This document shows, one piece after another, positions 1 through 25,460 of a DNA stretch of 64,000 bases (positions are counted from its first letter, which is position 1; the number at the start of each line of letters is the position of its first letter). The DNA is from Elsinoe ampelina. Taxonomy: Eukaryota. Made by a program: the position numbers and the translations under genes. The notes beneath the pieces were generated by a model that was not told the origin of the DNA, did not search any database, and saw only the letters and a program-made list of their open reading frames with translations. The DNA lies in the NCBI GenBank assembly GCA_010093995.1, contig ML992506.1, positions 1,355,617 to 1,419,616 on the forward strand, read 5' to 3'.

Positions 1-1396
1 CCTACTCTTTAAGTAAAGCCCCTTATATTCTAACGAGCCTTATATCTTTTAACTTTACTATTAGTAAGCTTCTTAGTCTTAAAGACCTATTTACCTATTA
101 TTAGCCTAACACCTCTTAATACCTAAAATTTCTTAATAATTAAAAAGGTTTTAGAGTTAGTTAGAGCCTTCTACTCTACCTCTATTATAGCTTACTAGTA
201 ATAACCTTTAGGAGAGAATAGTATATCTCTTACTATTTATAGGTCTAGCTTAAAATTAATAGCTATAGATCTAATAATCTTACTATTATTAAGTTTCTTA
301 TAATTAATCTAGCGATGTATTCTAAGGGACCTTCTAATAGTTTCTTATAGTAAGAGAGATCTCTTCCTTTTACTAGTTAGAAGTTATATATTAAATAGTA
401 TAATAAGGAAGTTAACATTCTTATTCTATATATATATTAGTAGTTAATTAACATTAACTATAGGATTAAAGGTTAAATATAGTTTACTAATAACTTTAAG
501 TAGTAGTATTATAAGGTCTTTACTCTTATAATTAGTAATAATAAGTTGCTTTCCCTATTTATTAATAAGTTAAGGATCTAGTTTAGGATGTTAGTATTAC
601 TCCTCTTATTCTTTAATAGGGGTAGATAATTGTTATTTATATCTAGGGATTAAAGAGTAGTTAGATGTTAGTTGTTTAGCTTAAGGTTATTTAGCCTAAG
701 TAGTTTATAGATTTTTATAACTAAAGGGTAGTTAATTATAGCTATAGTCTTAATTATAATTACTACTAAATGTCTACTCCCCCTAAAGCTATAAAGCCTT
801 AAGTTGTTATACCTATAGGATATATAGCTATCTAATAACTTATATTACTTAGTCTTTATAGACTATATTCTTATTAAATGTTATATAGGGTAATATAATA
901 ATCTTTCCCTTCTAGGCTTACTAAGTATAATACTAATAGAGTATCTAGATAAGGTAATTAGTTATTAAGTTGTTCTATATGCTAATATGCTAACTAAGTA
1001 GTGCTCTAGCTTAGAATTTCTATAATTTAGAAATATGTTAGTTATAGATATAGGCTCTATAGCCGAAGCGTCTAATATAAGTTAATAAGACTAGCCTATT
1101 ATTATTAAGAAGATCCTTTCTTAGCTCTTATATAAAGATCTTCTTAGTTTTAGTATAGATAATCCTATTACTAATATAGATTATAAACTCTATAACTATA
1201 TACTAGAGTTTAAGGGGTACTTTATAATTAATAAAGATATACCTTACTCTAAGAATAACTACTTTATTAGTAGCCTTAGATTTACTATTTTAGTATTAAG
1301 TATTAGGTATAGAGATGTTCTATCTCTACCCTTTAAGATAAATAGCTATTACTAGTTTATAGTTCTTAAATTTACTTTCTCTATTAGAGATAAAGA

Positions 1397-1727
1397 NNNN
1401 NNNNNNNNNNNNNNNNNNNNNNNNNNNNNNNNNNNNNNNNNNNNNNNNNNNNNNNNNNNNNNNNNNNNNNNNNNNNNNNNNNNNNNNNNNNNNNNNNNNN
1501 NNNNNNNNNNNNNNNNNNNNNNNNNNNNNNNNNNNNNNNNNNNNNNNNNNNNNNNNNNNNNNNNNNNNNNNNNNNNNNNNNNNNNNNNNNNNNNNNNNNN
1601 NNNNNNNNNNNNNNNNNNNNNNNNNNNNNNNNNNNNNNNNNNNNNNNNNNNNNNNNNNNNNNNNNNNNNNNNNNNNNNNNNNNNNNNNNNNNNNNNNNNN
1701 NNNNNNNNNNNNNNNNNNNNNNNNNNN
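1397..1727. other. Assembly gap (331 N) inside the retrotransposon
   Basis: Run of N seen directly. Confidence 1.
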
Positions 1728-3278
1728 GCTAACTTCCTTTCTATCCTTTATTAAGGATTTGCTAACTATAGAGATACTAAATTCCTCTTTATTCTAAAGA
1801 TTAGATATAAGGGTGTTTAGTAATAATAGTAAGTATATATAATTATAAAGCTTAATAATTAACTTCTTGCCTTTACTATTAGTTAGAGTAAGCCTAACTA
1901 TATTAACTTCTATATTAAGTAGCTTCTTTATACTAATAGCTTATTTAAATTTAAGAACACCTTTATATACCTTAATTATTAAGAACTATAACCTATCTTT
2001 AATAAAGTACCTTAACACACTAGAGTTATAAATTACTCTATTCTTACTATAGATTAAGAATAATAATATAGATACTACTACTACCCTATAGACTAGTATA
2101 ATAATATTAATATTAGTGTTAGAGCATTTATCTAATTTACCTACCTTAGTAGGTTCTCTAGATTCTTTAATAGCTGCTTAACCTCTAACTTTCTTAGTCT
2201 TTAACTTGTTACTTCTACCTTTAGCCTTTATACCTTTATTATTTAACTTGTCTTTATTATCCCTTTTACTCTAACTCTTTAGTACTTTCTTAGAGTACTA
2301 CTTAAAGTAATCTATATTAGAGTAGACATAATAAGTATACTAAGTATATTAATCCTTAATATAACTAGCTACTCTATAAATAGAGTTTAGATTAGTTCTT
2401 CTATTATATAGGGGCTTCTATATTCTAAGAGAGTCTATTATCTCTTTAAGACTCTTCTTATAGTTAAGGCTAGATCTTTAGCTCCTTAACTATTTAGTAG
2501 TCTCTGTTTCTATAATAAACATAGTCTTAATATAGTATAGAGGGAGCTTAAACTTATCTAGTTTAGTACTAATAGTACTTACTCTTTACTCTATAGTAAT
2601 AGTATATTAATAATAGTACTTTATAAAATCTTTATAGTACCTTTAGGTATTATAACTTATTATAATTACCTTATTAAGGTTATAGATAGCTATATATAGC
2701 TTATATAAAATAATAAGTTTAAATGTAGCTTTAATAGTGTCTAGAAGTTTCTTTAAAGTCTTCTAAGTTATACTATAGTAAGGTCTAATAGATTTATAAA
2801 TCCTTATTATAATAACACTATAAGCAATTCTATTATTCTTATACTAGGTCTTATTCCTAACTTTATAGACTACCTTAGTGCCTTTACTAGTATCTAGGGC
2901 TAGTTCTTTAAGCTTTATAACTACTAGTATCTAGTTAATGTTATAAATTATATATCTAAGTATATCCTTTTTAAGGAGAGCTACCTTAAGAGTTAATCTC
3001 TAAGTATTATAGTTACTTCCTCTCTTAAGAATCTAAGTCTTAAGCATTTTTACTAATCTAGATATAATAATAGTAATTAGCTAAAGGCCTATTAATTAGA
3101 TTAATATAATTAGCTTATTTAAGCTGTTTAAGTCGTTTAATTAAAGGGTTAATATGGGCTACTATAAGTGTTTGTCTTAATATAGCTAGTCTAGAATTTA
3201 GTGTAGGCGGCTTAGTAATCCTTTTAATAATAACACGCTTAATTTGCTACAGCTTTAAGTGCTTTTATAGAAGCGCCA

Positions 3279-11606: not shown

Positions 11607-14108
11607 AAGCGAGGCCTCGCCCGCTCGGGAGGTCATCTGCTCCCACCTTCGCTACATGTTCCGCTCGGTTGGACATATTGCCCCTGGTTGATCGTCGACG
11701 TGGGCACGTTTGGCTGGCAAGGCTGCGTTGTTGGGGGTGGCACACCTGTTCGTGAGCAACCCACGCAAAAGTGATCTTCTGTCCTGTCACATTCAGGTCC
11801 GGAGTGGGCGTTCAGGGTGGATGTGGGACATGCATACGGACCCGACGGAGTGGGTGTCGGGTTGGTCTAATGTCGGCTAGGATGGAGAAATTGATGGTTG
11901 GCGAACCTTTTCCTGCACATCACGAGGCGAGAGTTCGCGTATGGATAGAGAATTCGACGGGCAGGGTCCGGAAGAGGGACTCCGGCGGGGGCTGATGAAC
12001 GTGGTAAGGGACGAGACGGAAAAATAGAACATGCCACAGTGCGGCTGAAGCGACAGCTGACATTCTTTGCATCTGCGGCCGGATGAATCTGTCGTTTGAT
12101 GCAGGTGCTCGCCGCTTGTGGTGTCCCTTGCGACGCAAAATGGACGTTTGTGTGCCGGATAAATCCAAGGTGGAGATCCTCCGGGATGAGAATGGATAAT
12201 TTCGCACCTGCTTTTCTCTGGACAGTCGTGCGGCTGCAGCACGCCTATCGCGTACGCAGGTTTCGCAAGATTCGTCGGCGTCGTTTGCAGCTATTGTCAG
12301 TCTATCGTCTTATGATCAGCAACCTGCGCCGGCCGGGTGTCTATCAATCAAAACAACGTGTGCGTGCACCGGTACAGGGTCTGAAAGGGTGTTGATCAAT
12401 CCGCCACGAACGCATGCGGACAGAGTCTGGAGGCATAAAGCGTGGGGGTTTTGGCTGTCGCTTGTCTCCACTGACAGAGATGATCTCCCCAATCTTTTGG
12501 GTGGGAGAGGCTCCTTCCCGTTCCGGCGGGAGGAAATGTCGTTGGACAGATCCAACCGAAGCCACAGATTCATGCAAAAAAGAAAGATTGTCCGCGAGGT
12601 CGAAGGAGCCCCTGAGCTGCCAGGGAGTTGAGGTGAGAGTGTTTGGGCACTTTTGTGGAGAGAAGAATTGGAGCTGATCCGATCATCTCCAGAGTCTCCA
12701 CATCTCCGCATTGTCAACGAAGGACCGTTTGCGGAGCCGTGTGTGTCTGGCATATTGCCGTTGAAATCACAACATCTGTCAAGATTGGCCTCGTTTTGCA
12801 TGCAGTCACATGCAAGGAAGCCAAAGCTCACAGACTTCCCGCGGGGAACTCGCGGGCAAACAGTCCCGAAACACACCGGCGTCGCTCTGAGATGCAATCA
12901 ATGAAATTGCTAGAGATCGACCTGGCGCGTGACCCGAGTCATTGGAGTAGAGAAACCTGATCATCGGCGTCATGGATCTGTCTCTCCTTTCTGCGCATCT
13001 TGTGTGTCCTGCTTTAGCTCGTGCGCAGCCGGAGCAGACTTTGAAGGTGCCGGCGTCTCAGTCTAAGAAAAGCTCGATCAATCACAAACACGAGACTTTG
13101 ATGAGAATCTGCCCTCAAGCCGTTGGAGACCTGGATGGGTGGGTACACCTTGATTTTCCGCCAGGCCAGGTTCGTGGCTCGGCGGCTGCAGATTTCTGGA
13201 CAGGTGGGAACTCCAGGCTCTCCAGCCGTCGTTTTTGTGGAGCGAGGCCATGTGGCATTGATGGGCGGGGCACAAACCTTGTCGACGCCAGGAAAACGGC
13301 TCACTCCCTGGGGCTTCTGATAGAAGAGAGAGTCCGGCGTCATACAATTAGAAACTGTTTGACTTTAGGATCAGTGATGAATGGTGTTGGCAAACTTGGG
13401 AAGAATTAGAAGACCTGAATCGAATCGATCTCCAACCCATGGATCATAGAATGAGTGGCAGGGCGGACGAAGCACTCCGGATCGTCTGCCCTGGGTTTAA
13501 TTTCAGCCGACGTAGTTGTAGCCCAGGGTTGGAAGATTGACATGTTTGCCTGACTATCAAACATCCGGAGTCGTGAGAAGTCACGCGTCCACTGTCCAAA
13601 GAAATCATCGTTCTGCTCGAAACACGACTTTCATCTCGCATGGCAGATCTGTGGACCCCTCATGCAAAATTTGTGCTTAGCCGCTGATCCGGTCCGTTCT
13701 CGATAGCCGCGGACTGTCATGAGTGTTCACATGATTTAGCCGCCTCTAAGCAAAAGAGTCACGTTTCCTTTCCCGACCACGATTCGCATGCATCAAGGTT
13801 TGATCAAGGCATGGCCTCGGTCATCAGAGTAGACAAGACCGTACGTACCTGACAAGGCGCATGCTTTGTCGCCACAGGGCAGGCACATGACAATGACGGA
13901 AATTTGCACGATTTGTGCTTGTCGTGCAGGCCGACTGACAAGCCCACCAAGTCTCACCCAATTGTCTTGGACTCTTTCCGAGTGGAGATGCATCTCTCCG
14001 CGACACGTGCGGCAGACCAAGCGCACAGATTTGTCACTGATCATCAGTCAGGGTCCTGGGGAAGATTGTCGACGGTGGAGCTTGACAGGGCCAACCAACG
14101 TTGCATAC

Positions 14109-14445
14109 GGGAAATGCTATTTACCCCCCCGTTTTTTGCTAGATACCCCCCTCCAAGGCGCTACCACGCGGGAGCAGCCCGTAGCTCTAAACCTTAATCG
14201 AACTACTTAACAATCTACGTAGAATCTACTATTCTATAAGGACTAAATCCTTATAAAAAGGATATATGCTCTTACTCGCTACGCTCGTGCGAGCCGGACA
14301 GATCTTTAGCTAGGTCGCTCGCCGCTAAGCAGGTGTTAAGTTTATACCGTGAGTAGGGGCACGTAAAATAAGTTTAGCCTCCCGCGCACTAGCGCCTTGG
14401 GGGGGGGGTATCTAGCAAAAAACGGGGGGGTAAATAGCATTCCCC
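14109..14445. mobile_element. Non-autonomous MITE, Mutator (MULE)-like, 337 bp
   Basis: Terminal inverted repeats of about 55-66 bp (GGGAAATGCTATTTACCCCCCCGTTTTTTGCTAGATACCCC...CCAAGGCGCTA and its reverse complement). Flanked by the perfect 9-bp direct repeat GTTGCATAC at 14100-14108 and 14446-14454. TpA-rich interior with no coding capacity. Confidence 0.92.
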
Positions 14446-15293
14446 GTTGCATACCAGCGTGCTTTACGAGGAGAGTTTTCGTTATGCTTGCCGAGAGTGG
14501 GCATCATCCGAGCCGCGGCGAGCCACTGAGAGACGATGAAAGATGGACGACCCAGAGGCGTCCAGCAGATGACTTTGCTTCTCGGTCGGCCCGACAAACA
14601 AAAAGGCAAAACGGTGGTCAGCGGGGCAGAGCAAACCATGTGCTCGTTTTTGCCAGCAAACACTCTTGTCAGCCCAGCCTGACGGTGACACGAAACGCCG
14701 GCCAGCAATTTTGCGAGCTGTATCACATGTCGTCTCGTGTGGCCGAGTAGGGCCCAAAGCAAATTGGATTGTGCATGATATGGAAATTGAGGGGAGGGGG
14801 TTGCAGAAAGAAGAGGGCAATAGATTGCGCGGCGGGCTTCTGGAAGCTCAAGAACACAAACCGAACACAGACCTCGCAGGAGTCCTTGTTCGACCGAGTT
14901 GCCCAAAGCAGCACCCCTGGACGGGAGCCAAGGAGGGCCACACCGGGGCGCATGCTGTCACGAGATACGTCCCTTTAGTGATCCGCCGAGTGGGCATGGG
15001 TGATCGTCAACGAGCGCCCGACGAGCGCCGACGCGGGTTGCTTCTTGGGGCGGTCAATTGCCGAGGTGCAGGCCAGGTGCAGGTGCAGCTGTCTTTGGCG
15101 AAACGTGGGATTGAGAGTCGTGGACCGCCCCTGGTGGCGCTGGTAGCGTCATCGGCCCAGCCGTTGAAATGCGTTTTCTCCCTTTAGCCTTTGGTCCAGA
15201 TCGGAATGCGGACAGGTCATGCTCGAGAGTTGAGAGCCTCTCCCACGTCGCGTATCCTGGAGACTCTGAGTCGCCTTGGGTCGCCTTCCCACA

Positions 15294-18474: not shown

Positions 18475-21400
18475 ATGTCTCAGCCAGCACACGAGCCAAA
18501 CGAGTCCGATATCAAAGACGCGGTGAAGAGCGCCACCCCTTCCGCCCCTCGTGCGAACAACGCTACGGGGAACAAGACCTGCAGATACTTTCTCTTCAAG
18601 TCTGGTCAGTAGCCCTGCCTCGCCCTTTTCTCCAGATTACCCAATCATGTCCGCGTCTTCTTCAGCACATTCATTCCGCCATCTCACTGGCTCGATCCGT
18701 CACATTCATGACTCTGTACCATTTTCGGCCACGCATGCCCCAGCTCTGCCTTGTACAGGCTGAACATATCATGTGGTCTTGCACCAACTCATCGCCAACC
18801 TTCGGGCGTGGGATGTACTCGTGACTTTTGCTTACTATACACAGGTTGTAAGGCAGGCGACAAATGCCCATACAAGCATGAGGTCAGCACACAGCAGGCA
18901 GGAGCAACGTCAGCTCGGAAAACAACAAATTTCACTGTGGCACCTGACAAGCATGTGTCACCTCGACGGCCCGGACAACGCCGCTATCAGGCTCCTGTAG
19001 TACCTGCCTCCAAAGTTGTCCCACGTCCCGTACCGACCGCTCAGCTCGAGGATCCACGAGAGTTCCAGCTCGGTCAGATACGAAGACGGTTCTCGCCGGC
19101 CGAGAAGGATGATCCTGCATCGGGGACATCATTCACGTTCAAGCTGGTACCTTCCGATCCTGATTTCCCGTATGAGATTGATGCATTGGAGTGCGTACTC
19201 CTTGTACCTCCTTCGTATCCCAAGGATGACTCCGTGAGACCACGGCTGAGGATCACGAACAAGGAGATGCGCCGAGGCTTTCAGATCAATGTCGAAAATG
19301 GCTTTGATGAGATCGCGGCTGCTTCGCCTACCGCTACGCTGTTGGGGCTTATGAATCGACTAGACAAAGCACTGGCTGATGCCTTGTCAAGACCCATGGC
19401 GGAGACTGTCAAGCTGTACAGGCATGCAGGCACCATCTCAACTGGGACCGGTGATGCTACCAAGACAGCCAGCGCTTCGGGCCCAAGCGCGACAGCTATG
19501 CCGTCTTCTGGTGTACCCATTCCCTCCCGACCAGCACCTGCCATCGTCGCTCAGCCAAGCTATTCCAGCGCAGAGAAGATCCAAGCAGGTCAAAAGCGAC
19601 AGGCAGACATTCGTCAGCTTGTTGCTAGACTGGGTAAGTCACCGGGCTTTCATCAAGCCAACGATGGAGTATCATTCACATTACCTCCTTCTGTGTTTAG
19701 AGTCCCTACGGCACCAGTCTCAATATCCAGAGCAACTTCACTCCAGCTCGTCGTACCGGAACTCTACAATCTAGTACACTGTCAGATCAGATTTGGTGAA
19801 GAGCGCACCGATGAGGTACAGAATGCGGAGGCCGCTTTCGAGGCCAGGACAAAGTCGAACAAGGATGGATCACTGCTGGCTCATGTCAACTACCTTTCGC
19901 AGAATTTGAAAAGCATGGCTGCACAGACACGTGCCACTGTTCAAGAGACTACCGCTTCAGCTGCCCAAGCACAGCCTCCACCCGAGACTGACCGCGCAAC
20001 CTTGCCAGACGAGCCTGTAGTGACACCAGCACCTGAACTTCAGAACACAGATAAACCCCATATTAAAGTCATTCCGCGGCCACTGGAGTGGACACAAGCG
20101 CAAACGCTGTCAAGCGATGAAGACTCCAGCGACCTCTCATACTCTGAGGACAGTGACTTTTCTGATGATGAAGACGTCAAGGAGGGCGTCGCAATCGCCT
20201 CCGCACCTGTGACAGGCACAGCGGAGAAAGGCATCATGCTGTCGTTCCCGAACCTGGAGCTACACGGTATTGAGCTACTTGAGCTTCAATCACTGAGCCT
20301 CACTGTCAAATGCGATCGATGTAAAGAGCTCAACGATTTTGAGCGCATCCGCAACAATTCCCAAGGCGACCACACAGGCATGAAAGAGCAGAATTGTAAA
20401 AAGTGTGGCAGTAGCCTCGCCGTCGGCTATCGCATGGATCTCATACATGTCAACTCGAGTAGAGCTGGCTATCTTGACCTAGACGGCTGCACCACTGTGG
20501 ATGTTTTGCCTAGCACATTCGTTCCTACCTGTTCAGAATGTTCTACCGCTTACACCACTCCTGGATGCATTTCAGTCAGGGGTGATAGCTCAATGGCAGT
20601 TTGCCGCGAATGCCATCGCAAGATGAGTGAGTGACCACGTTCTTGTCCGAAGGGCACGTCTAACAGTCTCAAGGCTTCCGCATTTATGAGGTCAAGTTCC
20701 TCATGGTCAGCGCTGCTGCTGAACGCGCGACTCAGGGGCCTATCAGAAGAAAGGTGCATATTCACTTTGCTTCACCGAAATCAACTTACCCCTGACGATC
20801 ACTAGGTCAAGGAAAACCTCGGTATTGTCGCTGGGCAAGAACTACCACGACGAGGCAAATGCCAACATTACTCCAAATCCTACCGCTGGTTCAGGTATTC
20901 GCGCATCAACGCCTCACTGATAACGACATGCTGACCGCTCCCTCCAGGTTCTCCTGCTGTTCAAAAGTATACCCGTGCGACAGGTATGTCCCTCTACGCT
21001 ACCCGAAAGAGGCAACCCGATCGGCCTTTGAAAAATGTTTCCTCTCACACACCGTCAGATGTCACGACAACGAAAACCCCAACCACACCCACGAGTTTGC
21101 AAACCGCATGATCTGGTACGTACCTGCTCTTCTTCCATGTACCGGACGGAAAACGTCAAAAAACAAAAACGACATCATCCCGACCCCCGGGCCCACATCC
21201 AAACCCCCCCCGACCTCAACTTCCCCGGATGCACGATCAGGAGATCGAAGCGATCATCCCTACAAGCGCAGATCCTCCCGCATTTCCGCATCCTGCCCCA
21301 GAGTCACGACTGACGTAGCCACCACGGCACTGCATGTCTTTATTGTGTATAGACCCGGCAACTGACATTTTCCCAGCGGCTACTGTACGTCCCCGCGATT

Positions 21401-22491
21401 GCCCGGCTCCCATATTTCCGGCCCATGTCCCCCGCTTCCTCCCCGGACTGGGATCAACAGGCAAGGTTTGCATGTATACTGATATGTCTCTCTCCAGGTT
21501 CTCGCGAGCAAAATTACCGTCCTGAAGACTGTGGCGTGTGTCATTCTGTGCTGATCGGCAAGAAAGGACACGGGTTTTGGGAGGGCGGGAAAGGTACGTC
21601 ACTGTTTATTTCCTTGAGATTTGCCTCCCCTGCAAAGGTTGTTGGTTATGTGTATGATTGTTCATCCCCGGGTTCTCCTCAGAAGGACCCGGCTTCACCC
21701 CTGCCGGACGACCTGCATTGCACATGGATGTCCGTTTCGGGGGAAGAGAGAACGCCTCCGACGCAGCTGAGGATGCAGCAGCAGTCGCGCGTCATCCTTC
21801 AACATCCCCCGTCACTAGTCTGACGTGTATCACCCGGTTTACGACGAGCGACATGCGTCTCTGCACATCAGTCGCCCTAAAGCTTGACACGAGACATCCT
21901 GTCATGTCTGCCCTCCTGGTCAATGTCTCACAATATCCAGCGCGACCAGGAAGCCACCCCACAACCACAATCCACCGCAAACAAACATGCACTCTCGCGA
22001 GTTTGAGCTTGAGCTTGAGCTTGAGCCTAAACTTGCTTCCAACCATCAAGCTCGCTCGCAGAAGAGGCGTGTGACGCACACTTTCTCCCCGGGGAACGGG
22101 GGTGGGGTTGCTTCCCCGCGTTTGAGGAATCCAAGTTTTTGCGGGGATGGTGGGGATGTCCGGTGGGGGGAACGGCTACAGCTCAACTTTTGGCACTCCA
22201 CTTCGGGACTGCGCGTACTGGAGAGGCCCTTTCTCAGCTGGATACCCTGGATGGTGGACTGGCGAGTGGCGGTAAAGGATGATGCGCGCGCTGAACGCTG
22301 CGGGGCTTTTGCTCAGCACGAGTGAGAGACTGGTAGCTGACTTGTTGGTCTAGGGACGAGGGATAAGACGAGGATGTCGCGCAAAGGTGAGTGTCTTGTC
22401 CCTTTATTAGTGTTCCATAGGATATGGATACTGAGCATTGGCAGATCCAAGAAAATATAAGCGCAGACCTGGTGGGAAGCCAAAGACGTAG
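18475..22491 (+). CDS. CCCH zinc finger + RWD/UBC-like + CHY-type zinc-finger protein (10 exons)
   Basis: Exons 18475-18604, 18845-20626, 20674-20753, 20806-20894, 20948-20983, 21059-21115, 21377-21384, 21498-21593, 22354-22386, 22445-22491. The spliced product has CRYFLFKSGCKAGDKCPYKH (CX8CX5CX3H), PSDPDFPY..LxVPxxYP, several CxxC pairs, CQHYSKSYRWFRFSCCSKVYPCDRCHD (CHY), NRMICGYCSREQ and GFWEGGKGTRDKTRMSRKDPRKYKRR. Confidence 0.85.
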
Positions 22492-22774
22492 TCTGGCTAG
22501 AGTCTGCGGAGCAGTTTATCTGCTAGAAACCACGACGCTACTTACGAATGGGTCAGGTGGTTGGCTGCACTGGTTGTGACAGAGGGTAAGCATACTACTC
22601 ACGACAGAGGATAAGCATATGAGCTTCTTACGGGTCATGATCGACGAGACGGTTGTAGTATATATACAATGCATTCAATGCGGTCTATATGGTCATAACA
22701 TCATATCTATCATCCTGTGCAACGTCTAGCGTGCGGAAATGTCAACCATCTCCGCCTCTCCAATTCAGCCCTGC

Positions 22775-24781
22775 TCACCTGGCCGCCTTCCCTGCATTCT
22801 CCTTTTCCTCCCCCTCCTCCTCGCCCTCAAGCCACACCTCATGCCCATCCCCCTCCTTCACTCCCCCTCCCGCCACCACCCCCAAGACCGCCCAACAGCT
22901 CATCCCCCACCACACCGCCCCTACCACTCCGTTCCTCAATCCCATCCCGTATCCCCATCCCCCCACCACTGGCCCGAGGGTGCGCATGGCACTACTCACG
23001 CTCTGCCCGATCCCATGCACCGTCCCGAGCACACTCGGATGCGGGCTCGCGTTATTCAACAAAATCGTCGTGGCCGGGAGGGCGAACGTGCGCGCCAGAA
23101 CCTGGATGCTGAGCACCACTACTAGTGCGGCCCAGAAGTACGGTCCATCAGCTGGGTGAGGCGGGGCGGAGGATGTGGGGACCAAAGTGAGGAAGGGGGC
23201 GAGGAGGTAGGACAGCGGGAACAAGAGCAGGGAAAGGCGGTAGGACTTGATGGTTCCGAGGGAGAAGGAGAGAGGTGGGTACAAGATGAGTTGCAGGAAA
23301 AGACCTATGACGCCGAGAATGGCGAGGGAGGTGCCGATCGAGGGAGGCGGGAGGGAGAGGCCGCCTGTGAATGTGAAGGGGAGGTGAGGGCTGTAGTCGG
23401 TGGGTAGGTGGAGGGTGGGGTTGGCTGAGGTGGTAGAGTTGGAGGGGGAAGGCGGGACGAAGCGGGGGGTGGAGAGGAATATGAACCAGAGTTGGTTGAA
23501 GGTGCCGACGTGGCAGGCTAGCATGCCGTGGGCGATGAGGACGAAGATGACGTTGCGGGTCCAGATGCGGGAGAAGGGGAGTTTGCGTTTGGGCTTGGGT
23601 TTGGTGGGAGAGGCGTCGGTGGGGGAGGGTTGGAGTTCGATGTCGGTTGAGGGGATAGTGAGAGGCTGGTAGTTGTGGGTGGAGCGGCGGCAGAAGACAG
23701 TGCGTTTGAGGAAGGAGCCGAGGCGGAGTCCAAGGTCGCGGCGGTCTCGCAAGGAGTCAAGGGTTTCTTCGAGTCCGAGAATGACGGCAAATGCTGACAT
23801 GGCAATGAAGCATGCGCTGACCAGGTTAGGCAGAGCGTAGGGCCACTTCTTCATCCACCATACGCCAGTCTCGCCGCCAATTGATCCTCCCTCACCGAAG
23901 ATGCCAGGGTAGCTCTTGACCGGGTCTGCCAGCAGACCTCCAAGGATGGGACCAATGATGACACCAACGTTGAAGGTCATTGGCAAAAGCAGAAACGCCC
24001 GCGACTGATACTTCTTCTCCCTGATGATTTCCGATATCATGGTCCTCATGACACCCACGTTTCCGTTCAGCGCCCCGCCGACTGCTCTCCAGAACAATGC
24101 CATGTAGAAGCTTTGGCTGAAACCGAATCCAAGTGCGCCAATGCTGGTGCCCATGAGTCCAACAAGTATGACCCTCTTCCTGCCCATGCCATCCCAATCC
24201 GCCATGCGACCCCATAGAATAGCTGTCAAGAACTGCGCGCCTGTGAATGCTGCCTGAAGGAAACCCGCTTGCGATGCGATTGTCGAATCTGGTAGGGACG
24301 GATCGAAAGATTTGAGCTGGTAGAACATGTATGCCTGGAGAGAAGTCTGGGTCAGGGGGTCCGATAGACGGGCGAGTGTGAGGAGTATCAGTTGGTCTTT
24401 GCGAGGTAATGCAGACCAAGAGACCTGCTGTGGCTTGGTATTCGTCTTGTCCGAGGGTGCAGCAGTTGGATGATCTCGCTGCTGTAATGACCTGGCGCCT
24501 TGAATATGCTCCTCTTCGTCCACCGCAAGTGTATGAGAAGTGACGGGCCCTAGCTCTAGCTCTTTCGGTATCAGACCGTGCCTCTCATCTGTATCTTCCA
24601 CGTCCGAGTCGTCGGTATACTCCCCGTGGCTGCTGTCATCCGAGTCATGATCTTTGGCAAACTTGTCGAAGCTGTCGCGTGACGACACCGGACTGAATAT
24701 ATGTGCGCCGTAGTCGCTCTCCGCTGCCGTCATCGTAGTATGTTGAGTCTGCGGTGGTGTCGCATCATTAGGATCTGGCAT
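22775..24781 (-). CDS. Major facilitator superfamily transporter
   Basis: MFS motif A WGRMADWDGMGRKRV and multiple hydrophobic helices. First in-frame ATG at 24781 (MPDPND). Intronless ORF. Confidence 0.9.
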   Translation of the reverse strand: MPDPNDATPPQTQHTTMTAAESDYGAHIFSPVSSRDSFDKFAKDHDSDDSSHGEYTDDSDVEDTDERHGLIPKELELGPVTSHTLAVDEEEHIQGARSLQQRDHPTAAPSDKTNTKPQQVSWSALPRKDQLILLTLARLSDPLTQTSLQAYMFYQLKSFDPSLPDSTIASQAGFLQAAFTGAQFLTAILWGRMADWDGMGRKRVILVGLMGTSIGALGFGFSQSFYMALFWRAVGGALNGNVGVMRTMISEIIREKKYQSRAFLLLPMTFNVGVIIGPILGGLLADPVKSYPGIFGEGGSIGGETGVWWMKKWPYALPNLVSACFIAMSAFAVILGLEETLDSLRDRRDLGLRLGSFLKRTVFCRRSTHNYQPLTIPSTDIELQPSPTDASPTKPKPKRKLPFSRIWTRNVIFVLIAHGMLACHVGTFNQLWFIFLSTPRFVPPSPSNSTTSANPTLHLPTDYSPHLPFTFTGGLSLPPPSIGTSLAILGVIGLFLQLILYPPLSFSLGTIKSYRLSLLLFPLSYLLAPFLTLVPTSSAPPHPADGPYFWAALVVVLSIQVLARTFALPATTILLNNASPHPSVLGTVHGIGQSVSSAMRTLGPVVGGWGYGMGLRNGVVGAVWWGMSCWAVLGVVAGGGVKEGDGHEVWLEGEEEGEEKENAGKAAR

Positions 24782-25460
24782 AAATGTGTCCAACGAGTCG
24801 GAGGTGTAGCGGGAAACAGCGATGGTGGTGGAATCTTGGTATGCTACTCATGCGGCTCTACCGAGAGACTGGTTGATTAAGGGATTGAAAACTGATCTCA
24901 ATCAATCATAGGAGTTCATCAGTATCTGCCTGCGACATGTAGCAATTGTGACTGACACAGCCCTCTTCTGAAGATGTAGGATGCCGACGATCGGAGTCTC
25001 GCCGCAACGCCGAAGAGCGATATCAGTCACATCCATATCGGTGAACACATCAATGCCGTTATACCCGTATTGGTCGACTTTGGCCAATTGTCCAACAAAG
25101 AAGTTGCGTCTTCCAAACCAGGACTTTGACATGTTTCAATGCTGTCATGCGTCTCTTCCATCGTCGAGATTTCAATGTTTGCTCAGTAGAATACATATTC
25201 AGAAGACAAATTTCTGTCACGTGACCTTCTCGTGGAAATATTGCTTGCAAGAGCCTAAACGCCTCGCTCCCTTACGATGACCGCAATTCTTACGATGGAG
25301 CCGATACCATAGCCTCCTTGTTCCAAAAAATTGCCCTCATCGACACGAGCTTGGCGTCTTTGGGAGTGCTATGAGAGCATTACTTCCCGGAGCTCTGTCG
25401 TGTGGTACTCGTAGTCCTGCTATACATCTCCGGAACGAACTACTACACTTCCTTATTCGG

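Follow-up and report, generated by a model that had tools for sequence, protein, structure and literature searches.

Does a long intron filled with complementary segments encode a structured RNA, or is it an intron like others which has only become long? This question is raised by a gene of a CCCH/CHY zinc-finger protein in a 64-kb stretch of the Elsinoe ampelina genome (hereafter the window; all positions refer to this whole stretch of 64,000 nucleotides), whose eighth intron reaches a length of 760 nt. In an earlier note, based on the letters of the sequence, the intron was described as a nested and multibranched structure which would be either a non-coding RNA or a structure-driven splicing switch. 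Here this proposal is compared with gene models, public RNA contigs, related loci from metagenomes, and folding statistics.

The zinc-finger gene and its spliced product

The gene is located on the plus strand, starts with the ATG at 18475, and in the gene model comprises ten exons and nine introns with lengths, in order, of 240, 47, 52, 53, 75, 261, 113, 760, and 58 nt, intron 8 (56.6% GC) being approximately 13 times as long as the median of the other eight. The exon 18712-20625 matches with 98% identity the public protein P0001, annotated as hypothetical protein BDZ85DRAFT_262229 of E. ampelina. The CHY zinc finger was recognized by Pfam in both P0001 and the Myriangium orthologue P0004, and the N-terminus of the latter also contains a CCCH finger with a score below the Pfam threshold.

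In many ascomycetes the orthologous proteins continue after ...GFWEGGKG with the sequence TRDxxRMSRKDPRKYKR, and the complete tail GGKGTRDxxRMSRKDPRKYKR was found in P0004, P0006, P0008, P0014, P0044, and P0073 and, as a variant, in P0064. In the window this conserved basic C-terminal tail is encoded 760 nt further downstream, in exons 9 and 10 (Table 1). As was supposed in the earlier note, removal of intron 8 restores the tail TRDKTRMSRKDPRKYKRR in agreement with the orthologues, and the spliced product of the gene consists of 785 aa.

For the evaluation of splicing, Logan contigs from four public runs (X1–X4) in two studies (P1 and P2) were mapped over positions 20900-22700, the runs being taken as RNA on the strength of the spliced junctions in their contigs. 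In one X1 contig (2727 nt, depth 18.5) a segment of exactly 760 nt is missing, as are segments of 75, 382 (with an 8-nt microexon inside), and 58 nt, and all of them have GT..AG ends. Thus the segment 21594-22353 is a genuine intron, the eighth of nine, since the orthologue tail is restored by its splicing and since the X1 contig lacks precisely these 760 nt, and in this part the earlier description was correct. The GCTGAC motif, which we take to be the branch site, fits the fungal branch consensus CTRAY. GT..AG removal, a putative branch motif near the 3' splice site, and restoration of the conserved frame together characterize intron 8 as a U2-type spliceosomal intron.

Table 1. Positions of the features of intron 8 and its neighbouring exons in the window.
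Feature	Position	Strand	Basis
Exon 8, ending ...GFWEGGK + first base of the G codon	21498..21593	+	RNA contig and gene model
Intron 8, 760 nt, phase 1	21594..22353	+	GT..AG skip in X1 RNA contig; spliced frame gives conserved tail
5' splice site GTACGT	21594..21599	+	Sequence; introns 6 and 7 begin with the same hexamer
5' arm of predicted 14-bp long-range helix	21786..21799	+	Partner 22275-22288; 14/14 pairs canonical, in MFE
TGA closing the frame upon retention of intron 8	21821..21823	+	Reading frame; retention model equals P0001
Imperfect hairpin, ~88 nt	21985..22072	+	Sole locally outstanding fold (120-nt window scan)
(GAGCTT)x4.7 microsatellite	21999..22026		Upper part of hairpin 21985-22072; Tandem Repeats Finder
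3' arm of predicted 14-bp long-range helix	22275..22288	+	Partner 21786-21799
Putative branch site GCTGAC, branch A 22340, 13 nt before 3' splice site	22336..22341	+	Sequence
3' splice site TAG	22351..22353	+	Sequence and RNA contig
Exon 9, encoding (G)TRDKTRMSRK	22354..22386	+	RNA contig and orthologues
Exon 10, encoding DPRKYKRRPGGKPKT and stop codon	22445..22491	+	Preceding 58-nt intron skipped in 4/4 runs

Several other peculiarities of this gene region were observed. The microexon CGGCTACT (21377-21384, plus strand) lies between the 261- and 113-nt introns and contributes part of the C-G-Y-C zinc-finger motif; its eight letters are carried between 21115 and 21498 by RNA contigs of the runs X1 and X4. 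In the metagenome loci L043, L044, and L049 an 8-nt exon TGGTTACT with AG/GT flanks occupies the same place. The protein models of E. fawcettii (P0002) and E. australis (P0005) end with ...ERQxEDVE..., which, when read by eye, looks like the TRDKTRMSRK exon translated in another frame after several skipped exons. Downstream, a gene for an MFS transporter (Pfam MFS_1, E 1.3e-23), convergent with the zinc-finger gene, occupies 22775-24847 on the minus strand and ends 284 nt from the stop codon of the latter, and since plus-strand RNA contigs extend to at least 22700, the 3' ends of the two genes are close or overlapping.

Retention of intron 8 in RNA contigs

Along with the spliced form, the sequence of intron 8 is present in RNA contigs of all four runs and of both studies, so that the retention considered in the earlier note is found in RNA data. 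The 5' part of the intron is contained in an X1 contig (21586-22075, depth 5.3) and an X2 contig (21605-21861, depth 2.5), while further contigs start at 22235 (X2), 22139 (X3), and 22246 (X4), continue from the intron into exon 9 without a break at the 3' splice site, and skip the 58-nt intron that follows. Because of this skip, the X2, X3, and X4 contigs that keep intron 8 represent RNA and not contaminating DNA. In the contigs of the three P2 runs the spliced 760-nt junction was not found, the unspliced form was present, and all contigs over the 3' splice site were unspliced, whereas X1 from P1 was mainly spliced; these observations are qualitative, as contigs lose rare variants and neither isoform ratios nor RNA ends nor strand are derivable from them. 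The differing contigs of P1 and P2 could reflect regulated retention instead of mere inefficiency. Over introns 5, 6, 7, and 9 the contigs gave no unspliced form, which is a matter of missing coverage and carries no weight in the comparison.

In the retained form the reading frame continues for 74 more codons and closes with TGA, and the resulting model is identical to the public protein P0001 across all 835 residues, which confirms the earlier statement that retention replaces the conserved tail by an unrelated peptide with its stop at 21823. Removal at GTACGT ... GCTGAC ... TAG joins GGKG to TRDKTRMSRK and gives the 785-aa protein with the basic tail. A considerable part of the transcripts seems to keep the intron, and the frame read through it gives the 835-aa tail-less form of the public annotation. 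Since the stop codon of the latter is upstream of the 58-nt intron, which is still spliced, the retained RNA is probably a substrate of nonsense-mediated decay and not the source of a second functional product.

The same contigs allow another interpretation, in which those with a start at 22139-22246, in the last third of the intron, mark an internal transcription start of a separate, probably non-coding transcript that shares the last two exons with the gene. Such an interpretation has a very slim chance of being correct. Indeed, the contigs of X2, X3, and X4 begin there and run to the 3' end, and no X2 or X3 contig matched the upstream exons; however, holes in coverage prove nothing, the end of a contig is not that of an RNA, and the X1 and X2 contigs with the 5' part of the intron are what full retention predicts. 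Also, from 22139 on, the sole plus-strand intronic open frame of at least 40 aa is one of 49 aa (22126-22275).

Folding of the intron against chance

The minimum free energy (MFE) of intron 8 on the plus strand is -289.5 kcal/mol. This value corresponds to z = -1.21 against 20 dinucleotide shuffles, z = -1.58 against 100 dinucleotide shuffles, 7 of which fold as well, and z = -2.37 against shuffles within 76-nt blocks that keep the local C/G skew, where 1 of 90 folds as well. In the same three sets the minus strand reached z of -2.85, -2.24, and -2.46, respectively, which is equal to or better than the plus strand. As the minus strand is equally stable, the result points to DNA-level symmetry or composition and not to a strand-specific RNA.

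A background was obtained from 760-nt control windows of the same 64 kb, eleven of them tiled and nine chosen for the shortest open frames, with 14–20 shuffles each; a 21st control (start 1500) was excluded due to its overlap with the N run at 1397-1727. Only one of the 20 valid controls was at or below z -1.58 (range from -2.42 to +2.41), and intron 8 is therefore the second lowest of 21 windows and belongs to the structured tail of the background. In total, the stability of the whole-intron fold is marginal and not strand-specific, and the structured fold expected in the earlier note is visible only as an excess of z -1.2 to -1.6 with dinucleotide shuffles and of -2.4 with skew-preserving ones.

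The complementarity itself was evaluated in a similar way. The best Watson-Crick inverted repeat of intron 8 has a score of 25. Among global shuffles 121 of 300 attain this score, among block shuffles 114 of 300, and among background windows 67 of 167, the last figure becoming 64 of 164 when the three windows overlapping the N run are removed; the top three background scores (starts 761, 1141, and 1521) are artefacts of this run. The best inverted repeat of the intron is thus at chance level.

In the course of the background analysis some segments of the window attracted attention on their own account. The segment 13200-13959, which is 760 nt long and has short open frames, gave a fold z of -2.42 (0 of 20 shuffles), and in neighbouring windows, at about 13681-14820, inverted repeats score 97 and 109, more than anywhere else apart from the N run. 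The first 3300 nt of the window form an AT-rich block with GC of 7–28% in 300-nt bins, containing the N run, and from 3300 on the GC content is about 50%; this block may represent AT-rich repeats of the RIP type interrupted by an assembly gap, and a search for inverted repeats over 1-3200 gave none.

The individual helices listed in the earlier note were correctly placed in all ten segments tested, with 76 of 77 pairs being canonical (G-U included), but only five of the ten occur in the MFE structure, with mean pair probabilities of 0.70–0.99, the other five have probabilities of 0.10 or less, and the helices are not clearly above chance. Similarly, the cUUCGg element does exist at 22201-22206, but according to the fold output there is no well-formed stem around it in the MFE. 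The predicted 14-bp long-range helix has a mean pair probability of 0.94, and its size is at chance level.

Zipper stems, as in yeast introns of the RPS17B type, are a known mechanism of long yeast introns which brings the splice sites together, and both zipper stems and other intron stems influence splicing (PMC2536676; PMC12350175). In the positional definition, linkers have to total 42–85 nt (PMC12350175). Intron 8 shares with this definition one feature, in the form of a prediction only, but its linkers are 186 and 47 nt long (~233 nt in total). In addition, the structural distance by which the 5' splice site and the branch point are separated is 18, which is no shorter than in shuffles that kept the splice signals (median 18; the distance was the same or smaller in 23 of 42). 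By linker length and structural distance the assignment of intron 8 to zipper-stem introns was ruled out.

On a local scale one fold is outstanding. In a scan with 120-nt windows, 17 on each strand, the plus-strand window 21954-22073 gave z of -4.03 and, with 200 shuffles, -4.36 (0 of 200), the minus strand of the same window giving -1.34 with 200 shuffles. Three of the 17 plus-strand windows were at or below -2.3, all of them overlapping the microsatellite hairpin (Table 1), and two of the 17 minus-strand windows were at about -3 (-2.61 and -2.62 with 200 shuffles). Among background windows of 120 nt, taken from position 3200, 1 of 199 was at or below -3, and likewise 1 of 199 reached -4; by hand arithmetic at this rate, a scan of 34 windows contains one such case with a chance of ~0.16. 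The strand asymmetry of the hairpin is explained by its repeat unit, since the self-pairing of GAGCUU RNA covers 6 of 6 positions with G-U allowed and that of its complement 4 of 6, as read from the sequence; the GAGCTT repeat is also the best G-U-allowed helix of intron 8. The lowest of the 199 background values, z of -4.52, belongs to the plus strand of 23300-23419, a strongly G-rich stretch within the minus-strand MFS transporter gene.

No known RNA family was recognized at the locus. Rfam 15 gave no match at the gathering threshold across the whole 64-kb window, and with E-values of up to 10 allowed in 20000-24000 the best was 2.9, with none inside intron 8. The tRNA scan gave none, and the C box RTGATGA is absent from both strands of the intron, which consequently does not qualify as a box C/D snoRNA, a class defined by the C box RUGAUGA and a D box CUGA close to the two ends. 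Together with the marginal fold that lacks strand specificity, these data do not favour the structured non-coding RNA or the structure-driven splicing switch of the earlier note.

It was nevertheless considered that a functional RNA structure, either the long-range helices or the hairpin 21985-22072, tunes splicing versus retention and so switches the basic tail on and off. Retention does take place and does not look alike in P1 and P2, the 14-bp helix and three hairpins have high pair probabilities, the hairpin window is exceptional on the sense strand only, and yeast stems that affect splicing provide a precedent (PMC12350175; PMC2536676). Still, we hold this explanation to be very unlikely, given a whole-intron z which is marginal and matched by the antisense strand, splice sites brought no closer than in shuffles, a hairpin signal which originates from a microsatellite and has the above chance of arising among 34 windows, and an intron sequence that is not conserved in L043 and L044, the two loci with an intron at this place. 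We do not think that a specific structured RNA is encoded here; the complementary segments are rather what results, at this length, from 57% GC, the division into a C-rich and a G-rich half, and a microsatellite complementary to itself. More generally, many helices that look convincing to the eye appear in a long GC-rich sequence with C-rich and G-rich halves, even though it is not a structured RNA.

Intron position, possible origin, and significance

The occurrence of the intron in relatives was examined in a metagenome scan with orthologue alignment, which provided 74 loci, 66 of them containing the FWEGGxG motif. In 64 of these 66 the motif continues directly into TRD/TRN (50 by strict pattern and 14 by eye), and only in two, L043 and L044, an intron is present at the phase-1 position of intron 8, with a length of 98 nt in L044 (4163-4260) and of at least 294 nt in L043, where it reaches the contig end. 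The microexon and the intron after RMI are likewise found in L043 and L044, together with L049, which makes these three loci the closest relatives within the set. In blastn against the 74 loci the exons were conserved and no similarity to the 760-nt intron was found, so the comparison of orthologues gave the structured-intron proposal no support, as only two relatives have the intron position and their introns are unalignable. The position of intron 8 is thus older than Elsinoe, confined to one clade, and highly variable in intron length.

A different origin of the length and self-complementarity would be an inserted repeat, of which intron 8 would be, or would contain, a decayed relic. Introner-like elements are the main candidates, since Elsinoe belongs to the Dothideomycetes, for which long, multi-copy, and strongly folding elements have been described; they are characterized by hundreds of copies, greater length than regular introns, stable predicted structures, canonical splice signals, and fast decay (PMC3609843). 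Intron 8 has in common with them the class of fungi, the length, and the canonical splice signals. Its predicted folding exceeds that of shuffles somewhat, with a z of -1.2 to -2.4 and one of 20 controls lower, and it does so on both strands, as would be the case for a repeat at the DNA level. Moreover, sequence was gained or lost here, as one and the same position carries introns of 98, at least 294, and 760 nt. Introner-like elements are multi-copy, however, and no second copy of intron 8 was found within the 64-kb window or the 74 related metagenome loci; the phase-1 position is occupied in both L043 and L044, hence no fresh intron gain took place, the best inverted repeat is at chance without a target-site duplication seen, and the translated intron frames gave nothing real. 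According to these facts, descent from an introner-like element or other inserted repeat is unlikely.

Other mobile or coding sequences were searched for with the same outcome. A MITE or DNA transposon with terminal inverted repeats was rejected because the best repeat is at chance (121 of 300 shuffles) and no target-site duplication was seen. None of the four translated intron frames gave anything above the Pfam threshold, the word-indexed search for protein homologues of the frame 21888-22322 gave 0 matches, and HMMER on the representative library found for the frame 21658-22071 a single match, P0121 (E 2.2e-5), a repetitive protein of 505 aa matched at three repeats, which was judged to be spurious. 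In Hypoxylaceae, internally symmetrical stwintrons and their sister introns are described with terminal inverted repeats of 45–55 nt that could form a long duplex and with many sister copies (PMC8469720), whereas in intron 8 the best inverted repeat is internal and at chance level, and the contigs show a single 760-nt skip.

Taken together, intron 8 is likely an ordinary U2-type spliceosomal intron that was expanded to 760 nt and is spliced inefficiently. The retention would be a consequence of intron recognition in fungi, which takes place across the intron, long GC-rich introns being spliced with lower efficiency. In another filamentous fungus intron retention accounts for 93% of alternative splicing events, and retained introns are longer and more GC-rich than constitutive ones (PMC4324775). 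Intron 8 resembles them in its GT..AG ends, in being longer and GC-richer than its neighbours, in the presence of both spliced and unspliced forms in RNA, and in the premature stop upon retention. It differs by its length, which is far beyond the median of 73 bp given there for retained introns (PMC4324775), and by the fact that here the retained form became the reference protein model.

A more elaborate variant of the retention reading, in which the retention is a regulated switch and, as the three P2 runs hint, the majority of transcripts would contain the intron in certain conditions, would lead either to loss of the conserved, basic, nuclear-localisation-like tail or to decay of the mRNA; the GAGCUU hairpin or the 14-bp helix would then set the splicing rate, and the microsatellite length would tune it. 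We regard this variant as highly improbable. Should retention nevertheless turn out to be under regulation, fungal splicing control would gain a modest example.

With inefficient splicing of an expanded intron as the preferred reading, the main value of these data is in annotation. In P0001, the public model for E. ampelina, intron 8 is retained and the C-terminal tail conserved among ascomycetes is absent, and the models of E. fawcettii and E. australis likewise seem to be joined wrongly at their C-terminal ends.
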